A stretch of 64,000 nt of DNA, from the NCBI GenBank assembly GCA_900540805.1, contig UQHL01000004.1, positions 101,323 through 165,322 on the forward strand, read 5' to 3'. Within the stretch, counting starts at the first letter, position 1. Every line of letters starts with the position of its first letter. Positions 17,105 to 61,743 of this stretch are shown piece by piece. A model generated the notes under the pieces. It did no database searches. It saw only the letters and a program-made list of their open reading frames with translations, and had not been told where the DNA came from. Source of the DNA: an uncultured Eubacteriales bacterium (GTDB lineage: Bacteria; Bacillota; Clostridia; Christensenellales; Borkfalkiaceae). A program made the translations under genes and the position numbers.

Positions 17105-17353
17105 TCATATTTTCCCGAACAGCGCCTTGACGGCGACATTTTCCAATTTTCCCAGCCTGCCCGTCAAAGCGTTGGTGATCTCCACGGGTGCGTCAAGGAC
17201 GACGGAAAGGACGGAGATATTCTTTTCCCGATAGGGTATCCCCATTCTTCCCAAAATATATTCGCCGTAGCGGGAAAGCAATTCGTTGATGCTTTCGCTG
17301 GCCGAGCGGTCGGATACGAGAATGCTGACAACGGCGATGCGTTTTTCGCTCAT
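17105..17353 (-). CDS. small ACT/NikR-C-like regulator, resembling the 'putative iron-only hydrogenase system regulator' family (TM1266-like)
   Basis: 82-aa ORF MSEKRIAVVSILVSD...VLSVVLDAPVEITNALTGRLGKL. AAAGGAG RBS. Family assignment from memory of TIGR03959-type proteins, not verified. Confidence 0.5.
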   Translation of the reverse strand: MSEKRIAVVSILVSDRSASESINELLSRYGEYILGRMGIPYREKNISVLSVVLDAPVEITNALTGRLGKLENVAVKALFGKI

Positions 17354-17558
17354 AAAAAAACTCCTTTGCCGAAAGCAAAAGAGTTTTGTCCCGCGCCTGC
17401 CGCGCGAAACCGTTTATTCCGATACAATCGTATGCTCCGCATCGGGGTAGGACTTCTCCTTCCTCTTTGCCGAATAATAGGTAATCTCGGATATTCTCTT
17501 TTGCCGTCGGAAATTTTCTTTCGGTTCAAGTTTTATTTTGACAATTCGGCGCTTTGTT

Positions 17559-19334
17559 TCAGCGTCTGAATTTTTTCATTCTTTTCAGCTTTCTGCGCTC
17601 CTTGCGGGAAAGCGTTTTGTGATAGGGCTCTGCCTCGCCGTCGGTTTCGTCTTCTGCGCCGACGTCTTCCGCTTCCGCGTTTTCCGTTTCGCCGTCGGAA
17701 GCGTTTTCTTCTCCCTCCTCCGAAATTTCCGATTTCGTTTCCGCAAGCGCAATTTCTTCCTCGGATTGGGCTACGGGCTCCTCCATGACGGCTTCGGCCG
17801 TCGTTTCTTCAAGGGTGCCTTCTTCGGGCGCAATTTCCTCGGAAACTGTTTCTTCGGCGTTATTTTCTTCGGACGCGGATTCTTCGGGAATTACTTTCTC
17901 GGACGAAACAACTTCTTCCGAAACGGCCTCTTCCGTTTCGGAAACGGGCTCTTCGCAAACCGCCTCTTCCTCAAACAGCTCCTCCAACGGTTCTTCCTCC
18001 GCGGCGAGATCTTCCGCGATATCCTCCGCGGCAAGCTCGATTTCCGTCTCATTTACGGAAAGCGCATCGCCGTTCGGTGCGGACAGTTCTTCCTCGGCCT
18101 CTTCCGCCGTCTCCACGGGAGCGTAAGGCTCCTCCGCCGCGGCTGTTTCCGTCTCTTCCTCGACAAGCGTTTCTTCCGTTTCTGCGGCTTGGGAAAGTTC
18201 CTCTGCGACGGGACATTCTTCGCTTTCGCAGGCTTCTTCTGTTTCCGTTGCGGCGGGAGGACAGAAAAACTTATTCGCCTCCTCGTTCAACTCGGGAGAG
18301 GTTATTTTGCAGCATTGATCGGCATAATAAAGCCCCGCGGCGCGCAGTTTCTCGGTTTCAACGTCGAGACAGGGCTGACCGCCGCCCGACACGCACCCGT
18401 CGGGACAAGCCGTCACTTCCACAAAGTCGTATTTCGCTTCGCCCGCGGCAATTTTCTCCGCCAGCTCGCCCGCGGCCTTTAAGCCGTAAACCACCGCGAT
18501 TTTCGCCCTCGTCTCCCCGACGGAGATCTCCGCTTCGCGCAGTTCCTTCGGGCCGCGGATGCCGCTGTAACGGAGCTTCGCCAGCGCGTCCTCCGATTTA
18601 TCGTCCGACAGCCGCCGCGCCGCCGCTTCCGCCACGCCGCCCGATACGCCCGTGAGAATGCCCGCGCCCGTATAATGTCCGAAAGGCTCGTCGGGAGCCT
18701 CCGCGGCGAGAAGACGCAGATTGAGTTCCGCTTTTTTGAACATTTCCGCAAGCTCGTCCGTCGTGAGCACGAGATCGACGGCAGGCGCGCCGTCGGAGGG
18801 AATTTCTTCACACTTTTCCGCCGCGCAGGGCATCAGCGCGATCACTTTCGTCTCTTTACCGTCCCCCAGCGCGTCGAAATGCGCTTTAAGCGCTTCTCCG
18901 AACGTACGCATGGGAGAGAGGCAAGACGAAAACGCCGCGGCGAGATCGGGATATTTACGCTGAACATAATGTACCCAAGCGGGACAGAAGGAGGAAAACA
19001 AGGGCAGATTTTCGCCCGTTTCCAGCCTTTCCTTCAGCTCGTCCGCTTCCCGCGCGACGAGGAAATCCGCGGCGAACGCTCCGTCCGCCACGATATCCGC
19101 ACCCAGCGTTTTGAGCCCCGCAACGATTTTTCCCATTGCGTTTTCTCCGCGCGCCATGCCGAATTTTTCGCCCAAAGCCACGCGGACGGCGGGCGCCACC
19201 TCGACGACCACGCGGGTCGTCTCTTTGTCCGATTGGAAAATCTCCCGCGCCTTGTCCGTTTCGTCCTTAATCGTCACGGCTCCCGTCGGGCAGACCGCCT
19301 CGCAGGTATCGCCGTCAATCACTATGTAACTCAC
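17559..19334 (-). CDS. [FeFe]-hydrogenase H-domain protein with degenerate L1 motif and a long polyacidic C-terminal tail (putative sensory/non-canonical)
   Basis: L1 FSSFCPAW (canonical TSCCPxW), L2 MPCAAEKCEE, L3 EVTACPDGCVSGGGQP. N-terminal CEAVCP remnant. ~230-aa E/A/T/S-rich tail ending KERRKLKRMKKFRR. Start assigned to GTG 19334 with AAGGAGG 11 nt upstream. Confidence 0.75.
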   Translation of the reverse strand: MSYIVIDGDTCEAVCPTGAVTIKDETDKAREIFQSDKETTRVVVEVAPAVRVALGEKFGMARGENAMGKIVAGLKTLGADIVADGAFAADFLVAREADELKERLETGENLPLFSSFCPAWVHYVQRKYPDLAAAFSSCLSPMRTFGEALKAHFDALGDGKETKVIALMPCAAEKCEEIPSDGAPAVDLVLTTDELAEMFKKAELNLRLLAAEAPDEPFGHYTGAGILTGVSGGVAEAAARRLSDDKSEDALAKLRYSGIRGPKELREAEISVGETRAKIAVVYGLKAAGELAEKIAAGEAKYDFVEVTACPDGCVSGGGQPCLDVETEKLRAAGLYYADQCCKITSPELNEEANKFFCPPAATETEEACESEECPVAEELSQAAETEETLVEEETETAAAEEPYAPVETAEEAEEELSAPNGDALSVNETEIELAAEDIAEDLAAEEEPLEELFEEEAVCEEPVSETEEAVSEEVVSSEKVIPEESASEENNAEETVSEEIAPEEGTLEETTAEAVMEEPVAQSEEEIALAETKSEISEEGEENASDGETENAEAEDVGAEDETDGEAEPYHKTLSRKERRKLKRMKKFRR

Positions 19335-19404
19335 CTTTCCTGAATCCTCCTTAACGTTATACGGAAGTTTTGAAACGCCAGAAAGCCAAAACCTCACGTT
19401 CCGA

Positions 19405-19500
19405 TTTTACGCAATGCTTGAATAGGGCGCGGAAATGCCTGTAAATACTCCGTGCTTACGCATTTCCGCTTCTATTATAAAATCATTATACCATAACGAC
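19405..19500 (-). promoter_or_regulatory. recurrent promoter+stem-loop cassette, copy 2, in the 5' leader of the hydrogenase-like gene
   Basis: Minus-strand reading: GGTATAATGATTTTATAAT, then GCGGAAATGC-N21-GCATTTCCGC perfect 10-bp stem-loop, then ~90-nt leader to the GTG start. Confidence 0.45.
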
Positions 19501-19580
19501 AAAGTTTTTTCAATAGCCTGTCGAAAAATTTTTTGGGTTTTTTTAACTTTTTTCCGCATAAATCCACGGCGAAGAAACGC

Positions 19581-39212: not shown

Positions 39213-41519
39213 ATGAACGAACGCAAAAAGTTCAATTTTTCCACCGTTCTCCTTTACATACTTCTCTTTATCGCCATGTTTGCGCTGTACTACGTCGGCG
39301 GAAACGGCGAGCCCTTTTCCCTCGCGCTCCTGTACGCCATGCTGGCGGCGGGGCTGAACCCCGTCGTGTCCTGCCTTTTGTACGCGCTTTCTGGGCTGTC
39401 GGGCTTTACCCTGCATTTCCTGCCCGTCTATGCGGGACAGGCGGCCATCCTCTGCATCGTCTTTTGCGTCTATGCGAAATTGAAGAAAAAGGCCTCCGTG
39501 CTTCCGCTCGCCTGCGTCGCCCTGTCGCTGGCGCTTTTCGTGGCCTTTTCGCCCTTCACCCCCTACAATATCCCGCTCAAGCTACCCTTCTCGTTGGGCG
39601 CAATCACGCAGAAAATCATTCTTTCGGGACTCATCCTGCTGCTTTCCGCCATGTTCACCGTGGCGCTTAAAGCCCTCTTGAACAAACTGCTCCGCTGTCG
39701 TCTCAAGGCGGAAGAGATTATCTTTTCCGTTCTCTTCTTCGTTCTCTGCGGCGTGGGTATCTGTCGTATCGCAAGCGTCACCGCTTACATGGGTATCGCG
39801 TTTCTCGTCCTGCTGCTCTTTGCCTGCGCGACGAAAGACGCCTCCGCCCTCGTGTGCGCCTTCGCGCTGAGTCTGCCGCCCGCCTTTGTCGGCGGCGTTT
39901 CGCCCGAACGCTTTTTTATCTATGGGATCGCCGTGGTCTTGTTTATCAAAATGGGCCGACTGCCCGCCGTGCTCGCGCTGTTAGCGGTATTTTTCGCCTA
40001 CGGCTATTTCGACGGCATCTACGCCTTAAAGACCTCCCTTCTCGTACAATCCATTCTTTCCGCGCTCATTCCCTCCCTTCTTTTTCTGCTCATTCCCTCT
40101 CCGTTGGTCAGAAAAATGGAAAACAAGCTTGTCTTTTATCGGGAAAAGCACCTTTCACGGATCGCCATCAATCGCAACCGCGCGGCCATCGGTGAACAGC
40201 TTTTCGAGATTTCGGGCGTATTCAGGGAGATACAGACCACTTTTGCCGCCCTGAGCACCAACGAGGCCGAGGAGGGCGCCAAGGAATACATACGCGGCTG
40301 CGTAATCGAAAGCGTCTGCAAATCGTGCGCCAACTACCGCACGTGTATGGCGCGAGGCTTGGAAAACGGCCTCAACAAGCTGATCGACGTCGGGTGCGCA
40401 AAAGGAAAAACAAGCCTCATAGATATTCCCTCCGATCTGGCCGAATCGTGCGTCAATCAAAGCGGCGTCTTATATGCGGTCAACCGACAGATCGGGGACT
40501 ATCGAAAATACATGCTGGAGACGGAAAACGCGGCTTCGGGCCGGCAACTGCTCGCCAACCAGGCGCAGGGCGTCAGCGAGATTCTCAAAAATATAGCACT
40601 CGAACAGAGCGAGCCTTTAACTATCTATTCCGAAAAAGAAAAACAGCTCAACGTCGCGCTTTTGAAGGCAGGAATCGTCTGCTCCGAGGTGCTGATCGCG
40701 GGCGACGAGGACAGCCTCACCCTCTCCCTCGTCACTTTCGGCAAAGCGGACGTAAAAAAGATAGCCGCAATCGCCTCCCACGTGCTCGCCGCGCCGTTGA
40801 TTATCTCCGAACGGCTGACGTTGAGCAAGGACAAGTTTTGCTGTATTCTGCACAGAAAACCCTATTTCGACGCGGCGTTCGGCGTGGCGACTCTCACCAA
40901 GACGGGCGAAATCGCCAGCGGCGACACGCATTCCGTCATCAAGATAGACGAAAGACGGTTTATGATCGCCCTTTCCGACGGCATGGGCAGCGGCGAATAC
41001 GCGCGCCGTATCTCCGAAAGCACGATATCCCTGCTGGAGAGCTTCTACCGCGCGAAAATGCCCTCCTCGCTTGTGCTTTCCACCATCAATAAGCTGCTGA
41101 CCTTCAGCCGCGAAGAAACCTTCGCCTGCGTGGATATCGCGGTGGTCGATCTCGACAACGGGGAGGCGGACATCGTAAAGATCGGCTCGCCCATGGGCTT
41201 CATTCTCTCGGGAAATGCTCTGCATATCCTCGAAAGCGCGTCTCTGCCGCTCGGTATCCTCGAATCCCTTCACCCCGACACCTCCTCCTATACCCTGCAG
41301 GAGGACGACGTACTTCTGTTTTTAAGCGACGGAATCACCTCCGCCTTCGGCTCCTCGTCGGATCTCTACGAGACACTGAAAAATATTCCCGCTTCCAATC
41401 CCCAGCAATTGGCGGACGCGCTGCTCGCCAAGGCGGTGGCGCTCTACGGCGGGACGGCAAAGGACGACATGACTGTACTGGCCGTAAGGCTGTTCAAAAG
41501 TCTTTCGGAAGCGGTATAA
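39213..41519 (+). CDS. spoIIE: stage II sporulation protein E (PP2C phosphatase with N-terminal polytopic membrane domain)
   Basis: ~10 N-terminal TM helices. C-terminal PP2C motifs (SDGMGSG, LSDG). 768 aa. Confidence 0.9.
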   Translation: MNERKKFNFSTVLLYILLFIAMFALYYVGGNGEPFSLALLYAMLAAGLNPVVSCLLYALSGLSGFTLHFLPVYAGQAAILCIVFCVYAKLKKKASVLPLACVALSLALFVAFSPFTPYNIPLKLPFSLGAITQKIILSGLILLLSAMFTVALKALLNKLLRCRLKAEEIIFSVLFFVLCGVGICRIASVTAYMGIAFLVLLLFACATKDASALVCAFALSLPPAFVGGVSPERFFIYGIAVVLFIKMGRLPAVLALLAVFFAYGYFDGIYALKTSLLVQSILSALIPSLLFLLIPSPLVRKMENKLVFYREKHLSRIAINRNRAAIGEQLFEISGVFREIQTTFAALSTNEAEEGAKEYIRGCVIESVCKSCANYRTCMARGLENGLNKLIDVGCAKGKTSLIDIPSDLAESCVNQSGVLYAVNRQIGDYRKYMLETENAASGRQLLANQAQGVSEILKNIALEQSEPLTIYSEKEKQLNVALLKAGIVCSEVLIAGDEDSLTLSLVTFGKADVKKIAAIASHVLAAPLIISERLTLSKDKFCCILHRKPYFDAAFGVATLTKTGEIASGDTHSVIKIDERRFMIALSDGMGSGEYARRISESTISLLESFYRAKMPSSLVLSTINKLLTFSREETFACVDIAVVDLDNGEADIVKIGSPMGFILSGNALHILESASLPLGILESLHPDTSSYTLQEDDVLLFLSDGITSAFGSSSDLYETLKNIPASNPQQLADALLAKAVALYGGTAKDDMTVLAVRLFKSLSEAV

Positions 41520-47517: not shown

Positions 47518-48048
47518 TTACTTGCCGAACTTATCTTTATACATAGAAATACACTTGTTTATAATTTCCACGGCTTCGTCTCTATGACAGATTTCCTTAA
47601 CCGTCGTCTGTTTATGTTCGAGCGTTTTATAAACCTCGAAAAAGTGCATCATTTCGTCGAATACGTGATTGGGTAATTCATGGATATCGTAATAGCCGTT
47701 ATAGGTCGGGTCTTTGAAGGGAATGGCGATCACTTTCTCGTCCAGGGAACCGCCGTCGATCATTTTGATCACACCGATGGGATAACAGTTGATGAGGGTC
47801 ATGGGATAAATCGTTTCCCCGCAAAGCACCAACACGTCCAGCGGGTCGCCGTCCTCGGCAAGCGTTCGGGGAATAAAGCCATAATTGGCGGGATACACCG
47901 TAGAGGTATAGAGAACGCGGTCCAGCTTCAGAAGGCCCGTTTCCTTATCTAATTCGTACTTTACTTTACAGCCTTTCGGGATCTCGATCAGCGCCTCGAA
48001 GCTTTTCGCTTTTATCCGTTCTTCGGAAATATCGTGCCAGATATTCAT
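47518..48048 (-). CDS. ppa: inorganic pyrophosphatase (family I)
   Basis: EIPKGxKVKYE and DGDPLDVLV motifs. Start at MNIWHDI with AAAGGAG RBS. Confidence 0.85.
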
Positions 48049-48297
48049 AATTAAATCACTCCTTTGGGACGGTCCGTTTATTTGTCTTTTATAATAATAT
48101 TGTATCATACTTTCCGATTTTTCGCAAGAGTTGGAAATAAGCTTTCAAAAATTTCCCCGACGGATATCCCGAAAAAAGACTTTTATAGGTTTACCGTTTT
48201 ACGCGAAAAGGGCAAAAGGCTTTTAATCAGTTGTTTTTTTCAAAAAAACATGCTATAATGGGAACGCTTACCTTAAATCGTTTTTATCGGAGAAACT

Positions 48298-49569
48298 ATG
48301 CTGAAAGAGAAGATGAAAAATTTCGGAAGCAGTATAAAAAGTGCGGTTAAAAATTTCTTTAAGAGAAAAAATCCCGCCCAATTTTTTATCGCGATGATGG
48401 CGTTGAGCCTTATTATATGGCTCGTCAGTTCGCTCATCGTCGGAGAAAAATTTTTCACGGGAATCTTTTTTAATAACGGCACCGACCTTTTTATGGATTA
48501 TTTTAATTCGATCAGAGATGTTTTTCAGGGCATAGGCGTCTATACCGAACGACATGTTATCTATCCGCCTATGGCGAATCTGATTTTTCTTTTGTGCCTG
48601 CGTTTTGTCCCGGACGAATATGCCGCAACTTCTTTTAACGATCGTTATCTATGGGTCAATTATCCTTCGGCAATTTTGTCCTGTTTATTGTTTATACTTA
48701 TTTTTGCCGTTCTGTTTTTATTGCTTTGTCAACGGTATATGCGCTTTAACGGGAAAACAAAGCTCCTTTTTTCTTTTTTCCTGTTGGCCAACGTGCCCAT
48801 GCTTTACCTATTGGAGCGCGGAAATATTATTTTGATTTCCACCCTTTTTACAGGTATCTATATTTTTACTTATGACAGCAAAAGTAAGCTCGCCCGAGAA
48901 ATAGGGCTTTTCTCTCTTGCATTCGCCTTTTCCATTAAATTATACCCCGCCGCGTTAGGTTGGATGCTGATCGCAGATAAGCGCTATAAAGAGGCCTTAC
49001 GGTGCGTAATTTATGGAATTTTACTGCTGATTATCCCCTCGTTTTTTTTCGGTGGGCCGAAATGCCTTATTTGGATGATGGAAAATATATTTTCCTTTTC
49101 GTCGGGAAATAGTGGTTGGGACACAATTTCTCATGCAGTGCATATTCCCGTAATCGTTTTGAAAATAATATTTTATATCGGAATAGTAACCTGCATCGTC
49201 TTTTTTATTCTTTCGTCTTTTTTTCAAAAAGAGCGTTGGAAGGTCTGGACGTTTGCTTGTGCATTATTTATGGCCGCCCCGCCGTTGCATGCCGTTTACG
49301 GTTGGAATCTTTTTCTCATTCCCCTTATTTTACTTTGCAATGAAAAAACATTAAACGGAAAAAATCTTCTATATTTCCTTTTCATTGCTTTTCCGTTTTT
49401 ATTTATTCCCGGGGTCTTTCCTCCCGGCATCTCCAATTCGAATATCACAATAAATGAAGTCGTCATTCTTTTATGTCTTATCGCCCTTCTTATACTTTGC
49501 ATTGTCGATACGTTTTCGGCAATTACAATCAGGCAAAAAGAAAAAAATAATGTTTCCGCTGATTTTTAA
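48298..49569 (+). CDS. polytopic membrane protein, GT-C-like putative glycosyltransferase/polymerase
   Basis: 423 aa with ~11 TM. Loop with acidic residues (TDLFMDYFNS) after TM1. Low-GC. No family confidently recognised. Confidence 0.55.
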   Translation: MLKEKMKNFGSSIKSAVKNFFKRKNPAQFFIAMMALSLIIWLVSSLIVGEKFFTGIFFNNGTDLFMDYFNSIRDVFQGIGVYTERHVIYPPMANLIFLLCLRFVPDEYAATSFNDRYLWVNYPSAILSCLLFILIFAVLFLLLCQRYMRFNGKTKLLFSFFLLANVPMLYLLERGNIILISTLFTGIYIFTYDSKSKLAREIGLFSLAFAFSIKLYPAALGWMLIADKRYKEALRCVIYGILLLIIPSFFFGGPKCLIWMMENIFSFSSGNSGWDTISHAVHIPVIVLKIIFYIGIVTCIVFFILSSFFQKERWKVWTFACALFMAAPPLHAVYGWNLFLIPLILLCNEKTLNGKNLLYFLFIAFPFLFIPGVFPPGISNSNITINEVVILLCLIALLILCIVDTFSAITIRQKEKNNVSADF

Positions 49570-49603
49570 CTGAAGAAACAAACAAGGAAGTCAATTTTCT
49601 ATT

Positions 49604-50662
49604 ATGTACTATGTAAATGAAAATATTAAAAACACAAAAAGAATTTTTCCTCAACAGGGCAGATATGCGTATAAGAGATATGATATGAACGAAAATCCCG
49701 AGGGCCTTCCCAAAGCTTTTGTCGATTCAGTCCTCAAGGAAATCACGCCCGAATTTTTGTCCGTTTATCCCGAGCCTGACCGTTTTCTAAACAAATACGC
49801 TTCTTTTGTCGGGGTAAGCTACGACAATGTCCTTACGACAAACGGTTCCGACACGGCGATACGATATCTTCTCGAAACTTTCGGAGAAACGAAAAAAGAA
49901 GTTGTAACCGTCTCTCCTTCCTTTGAAATGTATGGGGTAAACTGTAACATACTCGGTTTGAAGCACGTCCCGGTCTCCTATGAAAAGGATCTGACGATAA
50001 ATATTGAAAATATTTTGCGCGCGATTACTTCCGATACCCGTGTTGTTGTTCTTTTGAACCCTAATAATCCAATAGGAAACGTTTATACCCGGGAAGAAGC
50101 GGAACAAGTGATTATCAAGGCACAACAAGTCGGAGCAATCGTTATTATAGATGAAGCTTATCACTACTTTTATAGACATACCTTTCTCGATTTTATCGAG
50201 CGCTATGACAACGTAGTTATTTTAAGAACTTTTTCAAAGCTTTTTTCGCTCGCCGCTTGTCGATTGGGGGTAATACTCGGCAATCCGGCGTTGATTTCTT
50301 ACGTAAAAAATGCCCGGTTGACATTTGACGTCAACTCCGTCGCTTTACTTTTCGGTGAACGGATTTTAGAGCGTCCCGAGTTGATTGAGTATTTAATAAA
50401 ACGGCAGGAAGAAGGAAAGAGTTACACGCTTAACCGCTTGAAGGAATATGGTTATGAATATCGGGACTGTAAAGGGAATTTTATCTTTATCAAGCCTTTG
50501 CATGACGCAAGGACTATCGCGGAAAAGCTGCGTGAAGAAAAAAAAGTTTTAGTCCACGCTTACGGCAATCCCCTATTAAAGGACTATATACGTGTTTCCG
50601 TCGGATCAATCGACGCAATGAAGATATTTCTAAATGCGTTCTTCGAGGTCGATCACAAATAG
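49604..50662 (+). CDS. class I/II PLP-dependent aminotransferase (histidinol-phosphate aminotransferase-like)
   Basis: LNPNNPIGN and the PLP-lysine context FSKLFSLAACRLG, characteristic of HisC/CobD-like enzymes. Confidence 0.8.
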   Translation: MYYVNENIKNTKRIFPQQGRYAYKRYDMNENPEGLPKAFVDSVLKEITPEFLSVYPEPDRFLNKYASFVGVSYDNVLTTNGSDTAIRYLLETFGETKKEVVTVSPSFEMYGVNCNILGLKHVPVSYEKDLTINIENILRAITSDTRVVVLLNPNNPIGNVYTREEAEQVIIKAQQVGAIVIIDEAYHYFYRHTFLDFIERYDNVVILRTFSKLFSLAACRLGVILGNPALISYVKNARLTFDVNSVALLFGERILERPELIEYLIKRQEEGKSYTLNRLKEYGYEYRDCKGNFIFIKPLHDARTIAEKLREEKKVLVHAYGNPLLKDYIRVSVGSIDAMKIFLNAFFEVDHK

Positions 50663-50692
50663 CTTTTGCTATAGGATAAGGGAAAACAAAAG

Positions 50693-52021
50693 ATGAAAAA
50701 AGTAATAACTTACGGTACGTTTGACATGCTTCATATTGGTCATATCCGTTTGCTGGAAAGAGCAAAGGCTTTAGGCGATTATCTGATTGTAGGGATTACG
50801 TCCGCAGGCTTCGATATGGCACGGGGAAAACTGAATGTCCGGCAAACTTTGACCGAGCGCATAAAAGCCGTTATGAATTTAGGAATAGCCGACGAAGTCA
50901 TTGCCGAAGAGTACGAAGGCCAAAAAATCGACGACATCAAACGCTATAACATTGATATTTTCGCTATCGGTTCCGATTGGGAAGGAAAATTTGATTATTT
51001 GAAAAACTATTGCGAAGTAGTGTATCTCGAAAGAACAAGGGGAATTTCAAGTACGGAAATCCGTTCCCGCAACGTTATACGAATGGGTATTGTAGGATAT
51101 TCTTCAATGTCGGAAAAATTTATTGAAGAATGCAAATATGTAAACGGCATAGAAGTACAGGCTATTTATACAAAATCTTACCCTCCTCCCGCTGCTTTGA
51201 GTTTTAAGGAGGCAAATGCCTGTTATCTCTTTGACGACTACGAAAAATTTCTTTCTGAAATTGACGCCGTCTATATCGTCTCCGATCCAAAGACGCGATA
51301 CGGCTACATTAAAAAAGCACTCATTGAGAAAAAGCACGTTTTGTGCGAATCTCCCGTTTCTTTAAGCCGTGAACAAACCATCGAACTGATCACGTTGGCA
51401 CAGTCGAAAAATCTCATTCTTTTTGAAGGCATAAAAACAGCCTACGTCCTTGCCTTCTCTCGACTTATTTCGCTTGTTCGCAGCGGAATTATAGGGGCAG
51501 TTAAATCCATCGATTCTACTTGCACCAGTTTAAGAAGCACTTCGGAAAATAACTGGGGAAGTCTGCTCGATTGGGGCGCGATCGCCATACTTCCGATTTT
51601 TGAAATTCTCGGTACGGAGTATATAAAAAAAGATATCATTTCCTATTTCGGCAATGCCGACGATATCGATCTGTTCACGAAAGTATCTTTTATTTATCCA
51701 AAAGCAACTGCGTCCTTAAAGGTCGGCATAGGCGTCAAATCGGAAGGAGAATTGGTTATTTCGGGAACGCGCGGTTATGTCTATGTTCCCGCTCCCTGGT
51801 GGAAAACGGAATATTTTGAAATCCGTTTTGAAAATCCTGCTGAAAACAAGAGATACTTCTATTCGCTGCATGGCGAAGGCATAAGATACGAGATATCCGC
51901 CTTTTCTGAAATCATTCAGAGAAAAACGGAAAATTATTATATTAATAACGATATTACCATTGCGATCAGCGGATTAATGGAAGATTACTGTAATAAAAAA
52001 GACGTAACGCTTATTTGCTAA
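50693..52021 (+). CDS. bifunctional protein: N-terminal TagD-like cytidylyltransferase fused to Gfo/Idh/MocA oxidoreductase
   Basis: N-terminus YGTFDMLHIGHIRLLERAK (HxGH nucleotidyltransferase motif). Residues ~130-440 carry a Gfo/Idh/MocA Rossmann + C-terminal fold. Confidence 0.75.
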   Translation: MKKVITYGTFDMLHIGHIRLLERAKALGDYLIVGITSAGFDMARGKLNVRQTLTERIKAVMNLGIADEVIAEEYEGQKIDDIKRYNIDIFAIGSDWEGKFDYLKNYCEVVYLERTRGISSTEIRSRNVIRMGIVGYSSMSEKFIEECKYVNGIEVQAIYTKSYPPPAALSFKEANACYLFDDYEKFLSEIDAVYIVSDPKTRYGYIKKALIEKKHVLCESPVSLSREQTIELITLAQSKNLILFEGIKTAYVLAFSRLISLVRSGIIGAVKSIDSTCTSLRSTSENNWGSLLDWGAIAILPIFEILGTEYIKKDIISYFGNADDIDLFTKVSFIYPKATASLKVGIGVKSEGELVISGTRGYVYVPAPWWKTEYFEIRFENPAENKRYFYSLHGEGIRYEISAFSEIIQRKTENYYINNDITIAISGLMEDYCNKKDVTLIC

Positions 52022-52067
52022 ATTGTTTGCCCTTCAATCGCACTGCGTTTTTTACAAAGGAGAAAGT

Positions 52068-52871
52068 ATGGAAAAGCTGGAAAAAATTCATTCGGTTCTT
52101 TTCGATATGTTGAGAGAAATCGCCTCTTTATGCGATAAATATGAGATCGAATATTTTTTAGATTCGGGGACGTTATTGGGTGCGGTAAGGCATCAGGATT
52201 TTATTCCTTGGGACGACGATGCCGATATCGCAATGAAAAGAAGCGAATATGAAAAATTTCTAAAGGTAGCGGACGAGCTTCCCAAGCCCTATCTTTTGAT
52301 TCAACCGCAAGATTATGGCGGATACTTTTTTGATTTTGCGCCGCGCGTCCTCAATATGGATGAACCTTTACATACGGAAACACACGAAGACATTGCACAA
52401 AATAACTATCAAAATCGTATGGCCGTCGATATTTTTTTATTGGACAATGCCCCTGATGACTTAAAAGCATTCCACAAGATGGTATTAAAGCAAAAAATCT
52501 TTTACGGATATGCAATGGCGCATCGTTTCAATAAAAAAATGCATTCGCATTCTTTAAGTGAAAAGCTGAAAATTTTTATTTTATCTTTTCTGGGAAAATT
52601 CCATTCTCTTAAAAACATTTTGAAAAAGCAAGAATGCTTAAGCACTGCTTACAACAAAAAAGACACCAACTACTATTGTTTTACAAACGTTATTCTTAAA
52701 GAAATCGGGAATCGTTATTCAAAAGAATGGTTTGATTCCTCCGTGAAGCTTCCTATACGCGACGCTCTCTTTACCTGTCCCGCGGGATACGATAAAACGC
52801 TGACTGCTTTATACGGCGACTATATGACGCCTCTGCCTCCGGAAGAACGCTATCCCTCTCATATCGATTAA
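52068..52871 (+). CDS. LicD family phospho-alcohol transferase (uses CDP-activated alcohols)
   Basis: FLDSGTLLGAVRHQDFIPWDDDADIAM, the hallmark LicD motif. AAGGAGA RBS. Confidence 0.8.
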   Translation: MEKLEKIHSVLFDMLREIASLCDKYEIEYFLDSGTLLGAVRHQDFIPWDDDADIAMKRSEYEKFLKVADELPKPYLLIQPQDYGGYFFDFAPRVLNMDEPLHTETHEDIAQNNYQNRMAVDIFLLDNAPDDLKAFHKMVLKQKIFYGYAMAHRFNKKMHSHSLSEKLKIFILSFLGKFHSLKNILKKQECLSTAYNKKDTNYYCFTNVILKEIGNRYSKEWFDSSVKLPIRDALFTCPAGYDKTLTALYGDYMTPLPPEERYPSHID

Positions 52872-52936
52872 ATTTAGATAAGGAAAAAACCGCTGCATTT
52901 TGCTATTATCAGCAGTAATTCAAAGGAGGAAATTAG

Positions 52937-53400
52937 TGGATAAAATCGCCGTGCTCGTTCCCTGCTACAACGAAAGCAACACGATCGAAAAGGTAGTAAA
53001 CGACTTCCGCCGCGTCCTTCCCGACGCGATCATTTACGTGTATGACAATAATTCCACCGACGACACCGCGGCCATTGCTCTTGCAGCCGGAGCGGTAGTT
53101 CTGCACGAATACATGCAGTGAACAGGAAACGTGATCCGAAGGATGTTTCGGGAAATCGACGCCGAATGCTATATTATGGTGGACGGAAACGATACGTATC
53201 CCGCGGAAGCCGCGCCCGAAATGGTGCGTAACGTTTTGGAAAAAAACAGCGATATGGTCGTCGGCGATCGCCCTGATCATGTGGTTCGGAGTAAATATCT
53301 GTCACGGAAATTATAAACTGATAAAAATCATTTCCACCGCCGTCGTTATGGTGTTCAACTTCGTCACAAAAAAATTGACTCTCTCTAAAAGATAAACTTT
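52937..53400 (+). pseudogene. family 2 glycosyltransferase (DPM1/GtrB-like), disrupted: in-frame TGA after ...VLHEYMQ plus internal deletion/frameshift
   Basis: 52937..53121 encodes VDKIAVLVPCYNESNTIEKVV...DNNSTDDT. An in-frame TGA is then followed by ...NVIRRMFREIDAECYIMVDGNDTYPAE... (53131..53316). A C-terminal TM remnant (ISTAVVMVFNFVTKK) sits in another frame. Confidence 0.6.
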
Positions 53401-57894: not shown

Positions 57895-58062
57895 AGAATA
57901 CAAACGGTTTTCGGCAGGATTTTTTTAATAAATTTTATAAAACCGATCAAAAGTCAAAACCCCTTACCTCCCCTTCCGCAAATAACCCTATCCGTCGAAA
58001 AAATCAAAAGCCGACGACATACTTTTTCCAAAAAAACACCGACGTGAAAATTATTTTGTTGC

Positions 58063-58089
58063 ATGAAAATTTTTTCACAAAATTTTCAT
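58063..58089. promoter_or_regulatory. perfect 11-bp inverted repeat ATGAAAATTTT-TTCAC-AAAATTTTCAT (candidate operator)
   Basis: Exact palindrome in the AT-rich region at the left edge of the low-GC island. 18 nt upstream of a consensus promoter. Confidence 0.4.
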
Positions 58090-58106
58090 TTTTCTTAAAA
58101 ACCCGC

Positions 58107-58135
58107 TTGACAAATCTTTTAGAAAGGGATAGAAT
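58107..58135 (+). promoter_or_regulatory. consensus sigma-A promoter TTGACA-17-TAGAAT with no obvious sense-strand gene
   Basis: Would transcribe antisense through the 58241..58513 gene toward the XRE regulator. Target unclear. Confidence 0.4.
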
Positions 58136-58240
58136 AAATTCATAAAAATGTTTACACATCCAAATAAATTTTGTGAGAAGTCGTACTTCGCGAGAGGTAC
58201 GGCTTTTCTTTATGAGAGACAGTCTGCTTTGATGATAATT

Positions 58241-58513
58241 TTAATTTTCTTCATAGTCCGCGCCCTCCGCAGCCTCTAATCCCATAAGCAACCCAAATTT
58301 GAAGCCTTCCAAATAATGATTATCTTCCGCCTCACAATTCAAAAAGTCAAGAGCTGTGGTCGCGTTTTTGTATAAGTCCAATAAATGAGGAAATTCGGAA
58401 AGCTGCGCCCTCATTTCCTCGTCTTTTTTAACAAATTCCTCTAAAAGTCTGAAATATTCGTCGCTGCACGGCACCTTTTCAAAATTTCCTCTCTCCGTGT
58501 AGTACATTTGCAT
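58241..58513 (-). CDS. hypothetical small acidic protein (divergent partner of XRE regulator)
   Basis: ~90 aa starting MQMYYTERGNFEKV (AAAAGGAAA RBS). No recognisable family. Confidence 0.5.
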   Translation of the reverse strand: MQMYYTERGNFEKVPCSDEYFRLLEEFVKKDEEMRAQLSEFPHLLDLYKNATTALDFLNCEAEDNHYLEGFKFGLLMGLEAAEGADYEEN

Positions 58514-58641
58514 AATTGCCGATTTCCTTTTCATAAATTACCTCTTTACTTTATTTAATCACAATCGTGATTATTTATATTATAGCAACCGCGATTGGTG
58601 TTTGTCAAGCATTTTAATCACGTTTGTGGTAAAATAGTAAC

Positions 58642-58845
58642 ATGGAAAAATTTATCGAAAGATTAAAAGAGTTACGCGCTCAAAAAGGATTGTCTCAGGC
58701 ACAGCTTGCCAAAGCGACGGGGCTGAGCCAAAGCGCCATAACTTATTGGGAAACGGGAAAGAGAATCCCCAACGCATATGCAGTGATTATTCTTGCAAGA
58801 TTTTTTGATGTATCAACAGATTACCTATTGGGTGAAGAAGATTAA
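58642..58845 (+). CDS. XRE-family (Cro/C1-type HTH) transcriptional regulator
   Basis: 67 aa, LSQAQLAKATGLSQSAITYWETGKRIPN helix-turn-helix. Confidence 0.8.
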   Translation: MEKFIERLKELRAQKGLSQAQLAKATGLSQSAITYWETGKRIPNAYAVIILARFFDVSTDYLLGEED

Positions 58846-58888
58846 TTTTTCCGCTGCGGAATAACGAACGGGCTTTTTATACGCAAAA

Positions 58889-58931
58889 AAAGGACTTAGG
58901 CTGATGGTGTTCAACCTAAGTCCTTTTTTTG
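58889..58931 (+). terminator. rho-independent terminator after the XRE gene
   Basis: aaggacttagg...cctaagtcctt 11-bp stem + TTTTTTT. Confidence 0.65.
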
Positions 58932-59230
58932 TTCTGGCGCAGAAGGCGGGATTTTCTACAATACTATATATTGTGTTTATTTTGAGAATATAACCACTAT
59001 ATATTGTATATTTTTGCCTTTAGTAACATTTTAGTAATATATCAAATTGTTTTTACTCTAATATAGTGCGGTTCTACGGAGCCGCTTTTTCGTTAAAAAG
59101 AGGGCCGAACCTATAAAAGTCCGACCCTCTCTCCTTTGTTCTTAACCGCGTTTAACGAGATAATTATATCACTTTCATGTTGAGTTGACAAGCGTTTTTG
59201 CTGTTGAGGGGAAAAATTAGTCAAAAACAT

Positions 59231-59650
59231 CTATTTGCTCTCAGTTGGAGCATTATCAACTAAGGCATTTACATCAATAGGTTGGAGCAAAATAGGGGTT
59301 AAACCAGGTTGAGTAGTTAATAAAGAAACTTGGCTACGAATAAACGGCATCATAATTGCTACCGTATTCTTTTTTAAAATCTCATTAGCAATTTCTTCAC
59401 TAAAATTTTCTCTTTCCAGTCTAAAAAATCCTAAAGCAGTTAAACTTAAATCAAAATTTTTCTCTTCATCAAATATTGTTGTGACTATTTGAATTTTTAC
59501 TTGATTTCTATCATCATCTTTTTCCGCATAGTCAATATTATAAGTTGACAATAATTTTAACGGTTTACCGTTTCCTTTAAATTTGAAAGAATACGCCGGA
59601 AAATAGAAACTGATCATTTCCAGCTTACTCTTGAACTCATTATCACCCAT
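59231..59650 (-). CDS. SecB-like chaperone (third component of a toxin-antitoxin-chaperone module)
   Basis: C-terminal half VAIMMPFIRSQVSLLTTQPGLTPILLQPIDVNAL matches the SecB signature region (cf. E. coli ...LFPYARE...FPxLNLxPVNFDAL). Confidence 0.6.
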   Translation of the reverse strand: MGDNEFKSKLEMISFYFPAYSFKFKGNGKPLKLLSTYNIDYAEKDDDRNQVKIQIVTTIFDEEKNFDLSLTALGFFRLERENFSEEIANEILKKNTVAIMMPFIRSQVSLLTTQPGLTPILLQPIDVNALVDNAPTESK

Positions 59651-59674
59651 TATAAGGTCTCCTTTTTTGTAATT

Positions 59675-60076
59675 TTAGGCAGCCGTCTCAACCGTATCAA
59701 TGAGCGTATAACTCCCTGATAGGTCGTAACATCCCTTCATCTCTACCGGTAATTGCATCTTTATCGGCGAAAATGCAGTTTGAAAATCTTTCTCTTCTCC
59801 GTTTTTATCGACCACTGTTACTTTTCGAATTTTTTCTAACAACTCTGGATTCTCGGAAATAAGAGAAAACAAAACCGCGCTACTTCCAACAACCTTATTA
59901 GTCCCCTGTTCCCATTTTTCTACTGCTTTTTTAGTAACTCCCATCACGTTCGCTAAAGCAATCTGGGTTAATTTAAATTTCTTTCTGAAATCTTTAACAA
60001 ATTTACTGCTAATATCAATTTCAAGATAAGAAACAACCACCCGCTCACTGTTCATTAGTCCATTAATGTTGATCAC
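59675..60076 (-). CDS. HTH (XRE/HigA-MqsA-like) antitoxin with C-terminal extension (putative chaperone-addiction segment)
   Basis: LTQIALANVMGVTKKAVEKWEQG HTH. ~60 extra C-terminal residues. 4-nt overlap with the toxin gene. Confidence 0.6.
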   Translation of the reverse strand: MININGLMNSERVVVSYLEIDISSKFVKDFRKKFKLTQIALANVMGVTKKAVEKWEQGTNKVVGSSAVLFSLISENPELLEKIRKVTVVDKNGEEKDFQTAFSPIKMQLPVEMKGCYDLSGSYTLIDTVETAA

Positions 60077-60510
60077 TTTTGGCCTCCATTTAACTCTTTA
60101 ATATATTCATCCACAAGCTCTTTTAATTTATTCCGATCGCTTGCGGAAATATTCTCGTTTTCGCCGTGTCCATGTCTATATATATGTAAAAGATATCCGA
60201 AATGGTTAATGTTATCTACAAGGACTATACAACGATATCCGTATGATTTTCCTTCTCCTCTTTCTTTATCATCGCTTCTAAGCTTCGAATAGTTTGCCTT
60301 TCTTTCTTCCCCCCAATAAATAACTTGATAAGAAGGTCTGTTTTCTCCCATCTTTAATTCTTCAGCAATATTTTGCGCAATTCTTGCCAATTCCTCTTTC
60401 CGTAATTTCTGTCTTTTTATATCTTTGATTATATTATAGGGAGTAAAAGGTTTAAATTCTTCCTGTATTTCTTCAAAATTAAGGCTGACTTTATATTCTA
60501 CATACCCCAT
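60073..60510 (-). CDS. putative RelE/ParE-superfamily toxin (HigB/Gp49-like)
   Basis: C-terminal ...YGYRCIVLVDNINHFGYLLHIYRHGHGEN...RNKLKEL resembles HigB-type toxins (cf. M. tuberculosis HigB1 ...HEANNHFRVLFFRWG). First gene of the toxin-antitoxin-chaperone order. Confidence 0.45.
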   Translation of the reverse strand: MGYVEYKVSLNFEEIQEEFKPFTPYNIIKDIKRQKLRKEELARIAQNIAEELKMGENRPSYQVIYWGEERKANYSKLRSDDKERGEGKSYGYRCIVLVDNINHFGYLLHIYRHGHGENENISASDRNKLKELVDEYIKELNGGQK

Positions 60511-60828
60511 ATACTTCTCCCAATCTTTTGTACCCTACATAATAGGGTATATCCAATATACTACAAATTAATCTTTTTGTCAACAGTTTTGGTAAAAATA
60601 TTTTTTAAATCACTACATTGATTATTTGATTTCGTTTCAATAGCAAAAAACGGAATTGATAATATTATAGCCCATAAATAGCCTGTGTCAACCCTTTACT
60701 GCCAACTTTTTTCTAAAAAGCACAAAAAACCCCGACAAAGCAGTATTACCTGCCCTGTCGGGGTGTTCTTCAATCATCATAATCATGCGAAGCAAGCACG
60801 GCTACGAGCCAAATCAGAAATATCGTAA

Positions 60829-61743
60829 TCATGCGTTCTCCTTCGGATTCGCTTTGCACCACTTTTCGCACGCTTCGGCTTCAGAAGCTCTCAACTCGTT
60901 TCTCTTGATTTCTTTTCGAGAGATATTCCAGCCAAACGAGGTCTTGAATGCAATATAAATCATCATTGTAATAATCTTTATTACAGCCGCGATAATCACT
61001 TCTTTTGACAGATTTAGTACCACGTCCGAAACCAAAGAACACACGAACACTGAAGAGATAAGCGTCGTAAATATAGACTTCACCGTATCCAACCTATCCT
61101 CACGCTCTGTGTTATACATCTCCGACGGAGATTTGCTGCTGTCTATCTCGCTTTTGAATGAAAGGATAAAGTTCGGATCATATGGCTTTACGCGAATTTT
61201 ATCACACCTGCGAATTGCCTTATACTGCTTTTGGTTTATCTCTCCGTTTTTTATCAGGGCACGGAGTTCTCGGCTTTCCAAACCTATAAAACGTTTTTCA
61301 TAGTCCTGAACGGTCAATCCCACAACGCTTAAATACTGTGTCCGCGCTCGTCTTATCACTTTTTCCGTATATTCTTCGCAATACCGCGGCACCTGTCCCA
61401 CATACTCGGAATCGCTTAACTTCTTTATAGCCTCATTCGCCTTTTTATCTGCGTCGTTATATTCTTCCGTACTTCGTCCCTTATCTCTGGCTATCTTCTT
61501 CGTCAGCATTCCTACCGACACCGTACCCGCGGCAAACCACAACGTATTGAACGTAATTTCCTTAATGCTGAAGCTTCCCGACATATCAAATACGATCAGA
61601 TAGGACGCTATCAAGGCGGTAAAAATAATAACGTCTATGATAGTCAGCAAGCCGTCCACAAATGCATTTTCTTTCTTTTCCTTAATCCTCGGCGCGTAAA
61701 TAAAAGGCGCTTCTTCTTTCTTATCTTCTATTTTCTTCATCAT
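60829..61743 (-). CDS. hypothetical membrane protein (2+2 TM with large central cytoplasmic domain)
   Basis: 304 aa. Last gene of a 5-gene translationally coupled operon. Low-GC. Confidence 0.6.
   Translation of the reverse strand: MMKKIEDKKEEAPFIYAPRIKEKKENAFVDGLLTIIDVIIFTALIASYLIVFDMSGSFSIKEITFNTLWFAAGTVSVGMLTKKIARDKGRSTEEYNDADKKANEAIKKLSDSEYVGQVPRYCEEYTEKVIRRARTQYLSVVGLTVQDYEKRFIGLESRELRALIKNGEINQKQYKAIRRCDKIRVKPYDPNFILSFKSEIDSSKSPSEMYNTEREDRLDTVKSIFTTLISSVFVCSLVSDVVLNLSKEVIIAAVIKIITMMIYIAFKTSFGWNISRKEIKRNELRASEAEACEKWCKANPKENA

Follow-up and report, generated by a model that had tools for sequence, protein, structure and literature searches.

A probable non-catalytic paralogue of [FeFe] hydrogenase with a polyacidic tail in uncultured gut Clostridia, and the leader RNA and importer cassette encoded next to it

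The closest described relatives are the catalytic [FeFe] hydrogenases of group A, such as the M3, HydABC-type enzyme HydA1 of Thermoanaerobacter kivui (Protein Data Bank (PDB) entry 8a6t) and CpI, whose residue numbering is followed here. The L1 motif of these proteins is TSCCPxW and L3 is ExMACxxGCxxGGGxP; L2 is defined as MPCxxKxxE (PMC6085437). P354 and F417 form part of the cavity wall around the [2Fe] subcluster, whose distal CN is in contact with K358 (PMC10147833). Sensory enzymes of groups C and D are changed at C299, M353 and M497 and keep the cluster ligands and the residues that hydrogen bond to [2Fe]; they display two [4Fe-4S] clusters at the N-terminal end, a Cx2Cx4Cx16C cluster at the C-terminal end and often a PAS domain (PMC8163306; PMC10055695). 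HylA of the HylABC-Fdh system and the eukaryotic Nar1/CIAO3 are HydA homologues that have no conserved L1-L3 motifs and do not produce H2; HylA and Nar-like proteins (PMC6085437), as well as Nar1 (PMC12621388), function in electron or cluster transfer. The subject of this analysis is an open reading frame, termed HydA-like, that is present in a 64,000 nucleotide (nt) stretch of DNA from an uncultured Eubacteriales bacterium (contig UQHL01000004.1). The whole stretch is referred to as the window, and the positions of all features are listed in Table 1.

The HydA-like protein is likely to be a non-catalytic paralogue of the group A, M3-type [FeFe] hydrogenases, i.e. a "pseudo-hydrogenase", and the gene cassette downstream of it an independent unit gated by a leader RNA. 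The relationship to group A is clear from the fold. The top Foldseek match of the modeled H-domain is T. kivui HydA1 (8a6t_A, E-value = 1e-32, 42% identity), which is also the best sequence match in the PDB, and CpI is matched as well. Pfam shows PF02906 (Fe_hyd_lg_C) as the sole domain, with 246 bits at residues 62–339 of the open reading frame. The NCBIfam hydrogenase models (group A, A6, clostridial and B1) all match the protein, each far under its curated cutoff, e.g. TIGR02512 at 291 versus 406, NF040763 at 321 versus 765 and NF040762 at 247 versus 900.

An explicit alignment to CpI with HMMER set the register of the H-cluster motifs. The preliminary description of this DNA was right that L1 is SSFCPAW, with the proton-relay residue C299 replaced by Phe; an intact TSCCP motif is not seen. 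L2 and L3 had been described as intact, however the alignment shows that K358 is changed to Glu and M497 to Thr. In addition F417 is Thr228 in the HydA-like protein. The 86 nearest canonical hydrogenases all have C299, M353, P354, F417 and M497, and 85 of the 86 have K358. The HydA-like protein keeps all four Cys ligands of the [4Fe-4S]H cubane (C300, C355, C499 and C503), as well as E279, E282, R286 and S319 of the group A proton path. Judged from the alignment, the pocket of the [2Fe] subcluster is dismantled by the changes C299F, K358E, F417T and M497T. It appears very unlikely that the protein is a catalytic hydrogenase, because these four residues are lost, there is no electron relay and the curated cutoffs of the hydrogenase models are missed.

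The electron relay has been lost by an internal deletion. In an alignment with M3 hydrogenases, the first 12 amino acids (MSYIVIDGDTCE) fall on strand one of the 2Fe-2S domain, and the sequence AVCPTGA falls on the last Cys-Pro of the second ferredoxin motif. The approximately 185 residues between these relics are deleted, thus the whole F-domain is gone and only two Cys are left in the N-terminal remnant. The CEAVCP sequence previously taken for a ferredoxin remnant is a product of this deletion. At the other end, the end of the segment that resembles the hydrogenase small subunit (SSU) in group A enzymes is replaced by a tail of 233 aa. The nearest catalytic relatives are 565 aa M3 enzymes with 48% identity, and search scores drop at this point from 522 to 325 bits. 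The orthologue L010/P0359 keeps the full M3 F-domain and N-terminus, yet it already displays SSFCPAW, TPCAAAKYE and the tail. In a neighbor-joining tree the canonical enzymes form one clade that attaches beside the window subclade and L010. Both observations place the tail and the pocket changes before the losses of the F-domain and the cubane ligands. The position of this attachment also places the window protein among the least decayed members; its branch has decayed least in the family. The disordered tail of about 200 residues, with the near-invariant basic helix at its end, was gained a single time, ahead of these losses.

The family is unnamed and has more than 100 members. A first search gave about 34 clusters with 66%–99% identity and the same architecture as the window protein, and a profile search gave 114 clusters (at 90% identity) at E-values below 1e-30, with PF02906 only and chain lengths of 331–735 aa. 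Relatives in GTDB genomes were obtained from an alignment-based scan; a scan with a single protein and too specific patterns gave none. The hosts are uncultured gut Clostridia, and the few named members are annotated as "hypothetical protein [Clostridia bacterium]" or belong to Candidatus Scatosoma pullicola. None of 144 family sequences has Cys at position 299 (E, S, A, K, R or F are found instead) or Phe at position 417, and only four have Met at position 497. Loss extends to the cubane ligands: 50 sequences have Gly in place of C355, 41 have Gln in place of C503, and C300 is missing from dozens of sequences, as is C499. L012, for example, has lost C355 and C499 and keeps the tail. M353 is altered in a sister clade, where the Cys residues following the H-domain are also not conserved. 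No variation in the four ligands is seen in the window subclade or in L010, the latter of which keeps the F-clusters as well.

The ratio of nonsynonymous to synonymous substitution (dN/dS) is 0.07–0.20 in the H-domain, which denotes purifying selection, 0.2–0.66 in the tail, and 0.03–0.16 in the C-terminal motif in divergent pairs. These values indicate that the HydA-like gene is functional. A decaying pseudogene is rejected by them and by the intact open reading frames in more than 100 clusters.

The tail consists of 209 aa with a net charge of −80, followed by 24 aa with a net charge of +10, in agreement with the polyacidic tail of about 230 residues ending in a basic patch that had been described before; it is predicted to be disordered. 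The C-terminal basic segment is a predicted amphipathic helix. All full-length family members display an acidic region (25%–49% Asp plus Glu in the last 200 residues) and the sequence KRDPYYRRLSxKERRKLKR with an invariant Ser. The reading frame of the tail is genuine, as the C-terminal motif is in frame across species and differences in length consist of whole repeats of the EEPVEEPTEEVVEAAETV kind. The number of repeats varies among strains, with protein lengths of 571–682 aa. Pfam searches with 33 C-terminal motifs gave nothing significant and there is no Pfam model for the motif. An exhaustive profile search of 1.84 billion representative sequences found the motif in HydA-like proteins or fragments of these and in no other type of protein. 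A similarity to ribosomal protein bS21 (FYEKPSxKRKK) was tried and rejected, with an hhalign probability of 0.2%. Within the lineage the tail is frequent, though confined to the degenerate paralogues; the hydrogenases of 502–510 aa encoded close by in sister genomes contain TSCCP and end without a tail. The preliminary description knew of no H-domain fused to a long acidic disordered tail; literature searches returned no description of one, and the NCBI name is "hypothetical protein".

Directly downstream of the HydA-like gene are four genes for a TM1266-like protein, a substrate-binding protein (SBP) and the permease and ATPase of an ATP-binding cassette (ABC) transporter. The 82 aa TM1266-like protein had been likened to the "putative iron-only hydrogenase system regulator" family, and it is a true member of this family, since the protein passes the curated cutoffs of TIGR03959/PF21699. 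It aligns over its full length, with the match to PDB 2nzc_A spanning residues 3–77. The NitT/TauT-type label given to the importer holds at the level of fold for the SBP. No Pfam or PDB relative of the SBP was found by sequence, and its model shows the class II fold of the NMT1/SsuA/TauA/ThiY type (matches to 3hn0 and to ThiY-like, SsuA and TauA proteins at E-values of 1e-10 to 1e-16), with a permease of the BPD_transp_1 family and an ABC ATPase as in importers of this type. The proposed translational linkage of the TM1266-like gene to the importer does not hold. There are 34 nt between it and the SBP gene, which has its own ribosome-binding site, and overlaps are confined to the SBP/permease and permease/ATPase junctions.

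The TM1266-like gene is not beside hydE, hydF or hydG. It heads an SBP-permease-ATPase cassette behind a leader RNA. Counts of this arrangement come from 80 metagenome loci (L025, L026 and L031–L106 among the loci viewed); matches to the SBP family number 1867. In 58 of 63 loci the SBP gene is immediately preceded by a TM1266-like gene, and a HydA-like gene is found in only 7 of 41; usually there is no hydrogenase gene in the vicinity. Thus the cassette is an independent unit, which is preceded by a HydA-like gene in a single lineage. It lies after tig-clpP-clpX in L025 and L026. The family name "hydrogenase regulator" does not fit the cassette setting and may mislead. A possible association with hydrogenase systems comes from two settings, i.e. 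the degenerate HydA-like gene adjoins in the window, and in Bacteroidales a TM1266-like gene without an SBP gene is near hydB-hydA-hydS::kinase-rex. One of the Bacteroidales loci (L015:11141-13129) encodes a fusion of a sensory-type hydrogenase with a histidine kinase (Fer4, H-domain, FeS, HisKA and HATPase), which illustrates the build of a genuine sensory hydrogenase and is located between an M3 HydA and a group consisting of a hybrid kinase/response regulator, rex, ribF and a TM1266-like gene.

In every species-level locus of the HydA-like family examined the gene order is dut-trmB-(HAD)-HydA-like-(TM1266)-SBP-permease-(ATPase)-rex-hydrogenase/adhE, where the TM1266-like or the ATPase gene is sometimes absent. 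Synteny is generally high in this lineage and gene order alone is weak evidence of function. In L023, L024, L108 and L109 there is no ATPase gene after the permease gene and rex is directly next, and other lineages have neither the TM1266-like gene nor the leader. The locus appears to be undergoing reductive evolution.

The 205 nt spacer between the HydA-like and TM1266-like genes folds well (z = −2.9) and contains a leader RNA that was not part of the preliminary description. The layout is CCUGA-P1-AA-P2(tetraloop)-GA-P1′-AAAGG, followed by a variable GC-rich hairpin and by a terminator-like hairpin that sequesters the Shine-Dalgarno (SD) sequence of the TM1266-like gene. The 5′ arm of this last hairpin, CUCUUUUGC, is perfectly complementary to GCAAAAGAG at 17496–17504 in the flank of the conserved hairpin, and this is conserved in all eight loci aligned. 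Such a pairing would follow classic antiterminator/terminator logic. The leader is found at positions 17355–17535 of the window (minus strand), at L025:5628-5745, at L043:296-400 and at about 60 other loci. In an alignment of 39 distinct sequences, 28 of which were picked by a pattern that requires P1 pairing, 89% of the cells are paired versus 74% in shuffled alignments, and none of 500 shuffles reaches the observed value; slid controls give 17%–47%. Double changes occur at all seven base pairs of the leader hairpin.

With a covariance model of the hairpin each locus gives a single match, in all cases immediately before the TM1266-like gene, and this includes loci that were not in the seed; nothing else is matched at an E-value below 1e-3 in 809 kb on both strands. 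A few weaker matches (E-value about 0.002) are at the start of the SBP gene. The leader motif and the TM1266-like gene are both present at 74 loci and both absent at 10, with the gene alone at 4 and the motif alone at none, the loci not being de-replicated. From this strict co-occurrence the TM1266-like protein is a candidate for the factor acting on the leader RNA. Rfam 15 gives only sub-threshold noise for the spacer. The leader is a candidate for a new riboswitch or a protein-dependent attenuator. The arrangement had been described as an operon with a regulator and an importer. The genes are real, but with an attenuator-like leader between them the locus is better read as a strongly promoted HydA-like gene that is followed by a gated cassette. 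It was also considered that the basic helix is an arginine-rich peptide that binds the adjacent leader RNA. This was rejected as a general mechanism, as most occurrences of the leader have no HydA-like gene with them, and there are HydA-like genes that lack the leader.

For the pseudo-hydrogenase the following explanation may be proposed. The H-domain fold is kept under purifying selection, and all electron-relay domains are deleted. Since it retains the four Cys ligands, the window protein may still hold a [4Fe-4S] cubane; it probably neither binds nor turns over H2. The working parts would be the folded scaffold and the basic C-terminal helix, which would dock on a conserved anionic partner. 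Candidates for the target may include the membrane, nucleic acid, the protein's own H-domain and components of the importer. The conservation of the motif residue by residue (invariant Ser, Asp/Glu) makes a defined macromolecule or the H-domain itself the more likely partner, rather than a generic lipid. The poly-Glu linker could be a spacer or an electrostatic competitor of the partner. The HydA-like gene would be driven by its own strong promoter, and transcription would then meet the attenuator-type leader RNA as a gate to the TM1266-like/ABC cassette.

Several points weigh against the reading of a pseudo-hydrogenase with an unconnected cassette. The docking of the helix is pure inference. 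The window subclade keeps the four Cys ligands together with E279, E282, R286 and S319, and a non-canonical or weakly bound cofactor is possible. The changes C299A/S and those at M353 and M497 are, taken alone, compatible with [2Fe] binding in sensory enzymes (PMC10055695). SBP and permease genes follow the HydA-like gene in all of the approximately 13 species-level loci examined, which leaves room for a functional tie to the importer. The family set was obtained from word-indexed searches and may be incomplete.

The preliminary description interpreted the protein as a possible H2-sensing or regulatory module. In such a sensor the H-cluster would be bound with a disabled proton relay, and the H2 signal would pass to the TM1266-like regulator that controls the importer. 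In line with this, C299, M497 and, in the sister clade, M353 are the same three positions that differ in sensory HydS enzymes, e.g. TmHydS and TamHydS (PMC10055695; PMC8163306), the four Cys ligands are kept, the adjoining gene is from a family named after a hydrogenase-system regulator, and the TM1266-like gene in Bacteroidales is near a HydS-histidine kinase fusion and rex. However, sensory enzymes keep the residues that hydrogen bond to the cofactor (PMC10055695), including K358-type contacts, and are without the group A proton path, whereas the window protein has Glu at 358 and Thr at 417 and is phylogenetically derived from group A. There are no N-terminal clusters, no C-terminal Cx2Cx4Cx16C cluster and no PAS or kinase output; the protein contains PF02906 only, in contrast to the HydS-HisKA-HATPase fusion of L015. 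The family also tolerates loss of cubane ligands, and relatives that lack at least two of them retain the tail and the gene context. TM1266-like genes with the leader mostly occur without a HydA-like gene, and HydA-like genes also occur without a TM1266-like gene. No hydE, hydF or hydG was found among 26 open reading frames scanned against Pfam, which are the larger ones in part of the 64-kb window. A sensor of H2 is thus quite improbable, and the HydA-like protein is probably a repurposed non-enzyme.

Two other roles can be set against that of a non-catalytic scaffold. The protein could retain the cubane alone, in the manner of Nar1/CIAO3, aconitase/IRP1 or HylA, and be a switch for redox, oxygen or iron status, or an Fe-S carrier, in which the state of the cluster controls exposure of the helix. 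The invariance of the four ligands in the window subclade and in L010 with its F-clusters is consistent with this, as is the rex-hydrogenase/adhE block that follows the cassette in related genomes, and HylA, the Nar-like proteins and Nar1 serve as precedents; by analogy HylA and Nar1 would be the closest ones for a repurposed H-domain. Most of the wider family, however, is minus one to three ligands, therefore a cluster is not the family-wide mechanism. HylA and Nar1 both keep N-terminal Fe-S domains and act in complexes (with HylBC/Fdh, or in cytosolic iron-sulfur assembly, CIA), whereas the window family is usually without accessory clusters, has no HylB, HylC or Fdh genes or CIA-type partners nearby, and displays the polyacidic tail and a unique C-terminal motif. 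A cubane-only function is considered unlikely. The remaining role, that of an accessory subunit of the adjacent importer with the basic helix as its anchor on the membrane or the ATPase, must be called very improbable. FtsY, which has an acidic A-domain and a basic lipid-binding helix, offers a comparison. The constant order of HydA-like, SBP and permease genes speaks for such a subunit, as do the short same-strand spacers in several loci (37–95 nt, L021 and L022) and the amphipathic character and net charge of the helix. Yet the cassette has a much wider distribution than the HydA-like family and is usually found without a member of it, and the upstream dut and trmB genes show the same degree of synteny, so that mere inheritance may explain the gene order. 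Furthermore a terminator and a promoter-like sequence lie between the HydA-like gene and the cassette in L021, L023 and L024, the ATPase gene is missing at the locus in some lineages, and exact conservation of a motif is atypical of generic lipid anchors.

A bolder combination of these elements is doubtful. It would make the HydA-like family a new class of bacterial pseudoenzyme with a "ball-and-chain" output and, separately, the TM1266-like gene with its leader a new attenuation system or riboswitch class. The H-domain would then be a ligand- or cluster-dependent switch, and the basic helix on its polyglutamate tether would bind a cellular polyanion or a protein. In the window subclade the cubane and an acidic [2Fe] pocket, with Glu at 358, would sense a signal other than H2, e.g. 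a metal ion or the redox state. A widespread importer could be controlled either by a new ligand-responsive, RNA-binding attenuation system made up of the TM1266-like ACT protein and the leader RNA, or by the leader itself as a new riboswitch class.

The identification of a degenerate paralogue bears on the annotation of H2 metabolism. Automated pipelines would call the HydA-like gene a hydrogenase or an H2 sensor, and surveys of gut metagenomes that rely on Fe_hyd_lg_C would over-count hydrogenases in common uncultured Clostridia. The family provides a natural series of stepwise loss of the H-cluster, from a full M3 protein with a tail, through deletion of the F-domain, to loss of cubane ligands, making visible what has been preserved of the fold in a non-catalytic role. 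The TM1266 "hydrogenase regulator" family is re-framed as the lead gene of an ABC-importer cassette. The covarying leader RNA, absent from Rfam, is directly testable as a riboswitch or a protein-dependent attenuator.

The HydA-like coding sequence is contained in a 612-codon open reading frame on the minus strand (17559..19397). The true start is a GTG at 19334, preceded by AAGGAGG. The same codon is ATG in the Candidatus Scatosoma orthologue (L010) and GTG in a sister species (L001), and with the AAGGAGG sequence this upholds the 591 aa coding sequence 17559..19334 given earlier. The gene is flanked by genes for a HAD hydrolase, trmB and dut, and by the TM1266-like and ABC genes. Long open reading frames on the plus strand opposite the tail-coding region (17538–18482 and 17785–18126) are artefacts of the GAA-rich low-complexity sequence and not genes.

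The promoter block is kept at the orthologous loci L001, L010, L011 and L012. No Rex operator is obvious in it by eye, the only form of inspection made. Downstream of the TTGAAA-17-TATAAT promoter is the perfect 10-bp stem-loop that had been pointed out in the 5′ leader, located at 19469..19429. The whole 5′ leader folds with z = −1.7 and gives only sub-threshold noise with Rfam. Other species have a hairpin of unrelated sequence at the equivalent site, and we infer that the hairpin is an mRNA 5′ stabilizer and not a sequence-specific element. In a 98%-identical strain (L005:9940-10000, compared with window positions 19400–19480) the −10 box and the 5′ hairpin are tandemly duplicated, and the stem changes in the second copy compensate each other (GCGAAAATAC/GTATTTTCGC).

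Table 1. Features of the HydA-like locus and the adjoining cassette. Positions are those of the window; residue numbers are those of the HydA-like protein. AF2, AlphaFold2; pLDDT, predicted local distance difference test; CM, covariance model.
Feature	Position	Strand	Evidence or remarks
Sigma-70-type promoter TTGAAA-17 nt-TATAAT with TG extension	19485..19513	(-)	11/12 consensus matches
5′ leader hairpin, 10-bp perfect stem GCGGAAATGC/GCATTTCCGC, 21-nt loop	19429..19469	(-)	Sequence and fold; about 9 nt from predicted transcript start
HydA-like pseudo-hydrogenase (probable), coding sequence	17559..19334	(-)	591 aa plus stop; GTG start
N-terminal remnant, residues 1–21, MSYIVIDGDTCEAVCPTGAVT	19272..19334	(-)	Alignment to M3 hydrogenases; pLDDT <50
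H-domain, residues 22–358	18261..19271	(-)	AF2 pLDDT mostly >90; Foldseek; dN/dS 0.07–0.20
L1, SSFCPAW	18975..18995	(-)	CpI C299 = Phe116; C300 kept
L2, MPCAAEKCE	18807..18833	(-)	C355 kept; K358 = Glu173, Lys shifted one position later
L3, EVTACPDGCVSGGGQP	18372..18419	(-)	M497 = Thr308; C499 and C503 kept
Polyacidic tail (predicted disordered), residues 359–567, with subclade motif EEPLEELFEE	17634..18260	(-)	36% Glu, net charge −80; pLDDT <50
C-terminal basic motif EPYHKTLSRKERRKLKRMKKFRR, residues 568–591	17562..17633	(-)	Family consensus KRDPYYRRLSxKERRKLKR; predicted helix, pLDDT 73–90
Conserved leader RNA hairpin with 4-bp P1, AA/GA internal loop, 3-bp P2 and loop; 3′ flank GCAAAAGAG	17493..17532	(-)	CM match 39.5 bits, E-value 8e-7
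GC-rich hairpin	17388–17410	(-)	Spacer fold
Terminator-like hairpin sequestering the TM1266-like SD, then U7 and ATG	17357–17387	(-)	Spacer fold
TM1266-like ACT-fold protein, 82 aa	17105..17353	(-)	TIGR03959 104.7 bits (cutoff 60.8); PF21699; PDB 2nzc 2e-12
Lipoprotein SBP, 346 aa	16030..17070	(-)	AF2 pLDDT 90; fold matches 3hn0, thiamin/FAMP/PQQ binders, SsuA, TauA
ABC permease, 259 aa	15258..16037	(-)	PF00528; gene call in 98%-identical L005; overlaps SBP stop by 8 nt
ABC ATPase, 224 aa	14584..15258	(-)	PF00005; overlaps permease stop by 1 nt

In several related loci (L021:1-5189, L022:1-5437, L023:1-5165, L024:1-5278, L107 and L109) a conserved block is found directly upstream of dut-trmB-HydA-like. 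It consists of a gene for a P22/SU10-type portal protein and five genes without a Pfam match (about 215–300, 385–391, 183–220, 444–454 and 160–167 aa), and may be a domesticated phage head module. The idea that the HydA-like protein is cargo of a phage-like capsid is not supported, as the portal cluster is upstream of dut in L021–L024 with housekeeping genes in between, and none is present among the window open reading frames scanned.

Elsewhere in the window, positions 39213–41519 (plus strand) encode a SpoIIE homologue with a SpoIIE_N domain and a PP2C-like SpoIIE domain, and the source organism is probably a spore former. Two stretches, at 58000–61000 and 48000–53000, have a G+C content of 34%–40%, as compared with 50%–60% elsewhere in the window. 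The 48–53 kb stretch carries genes of the glycosyltransferase, aminotransferase and cytidylyltransferase types and is possibly a horizontally acquired surface-polysaccharide island.

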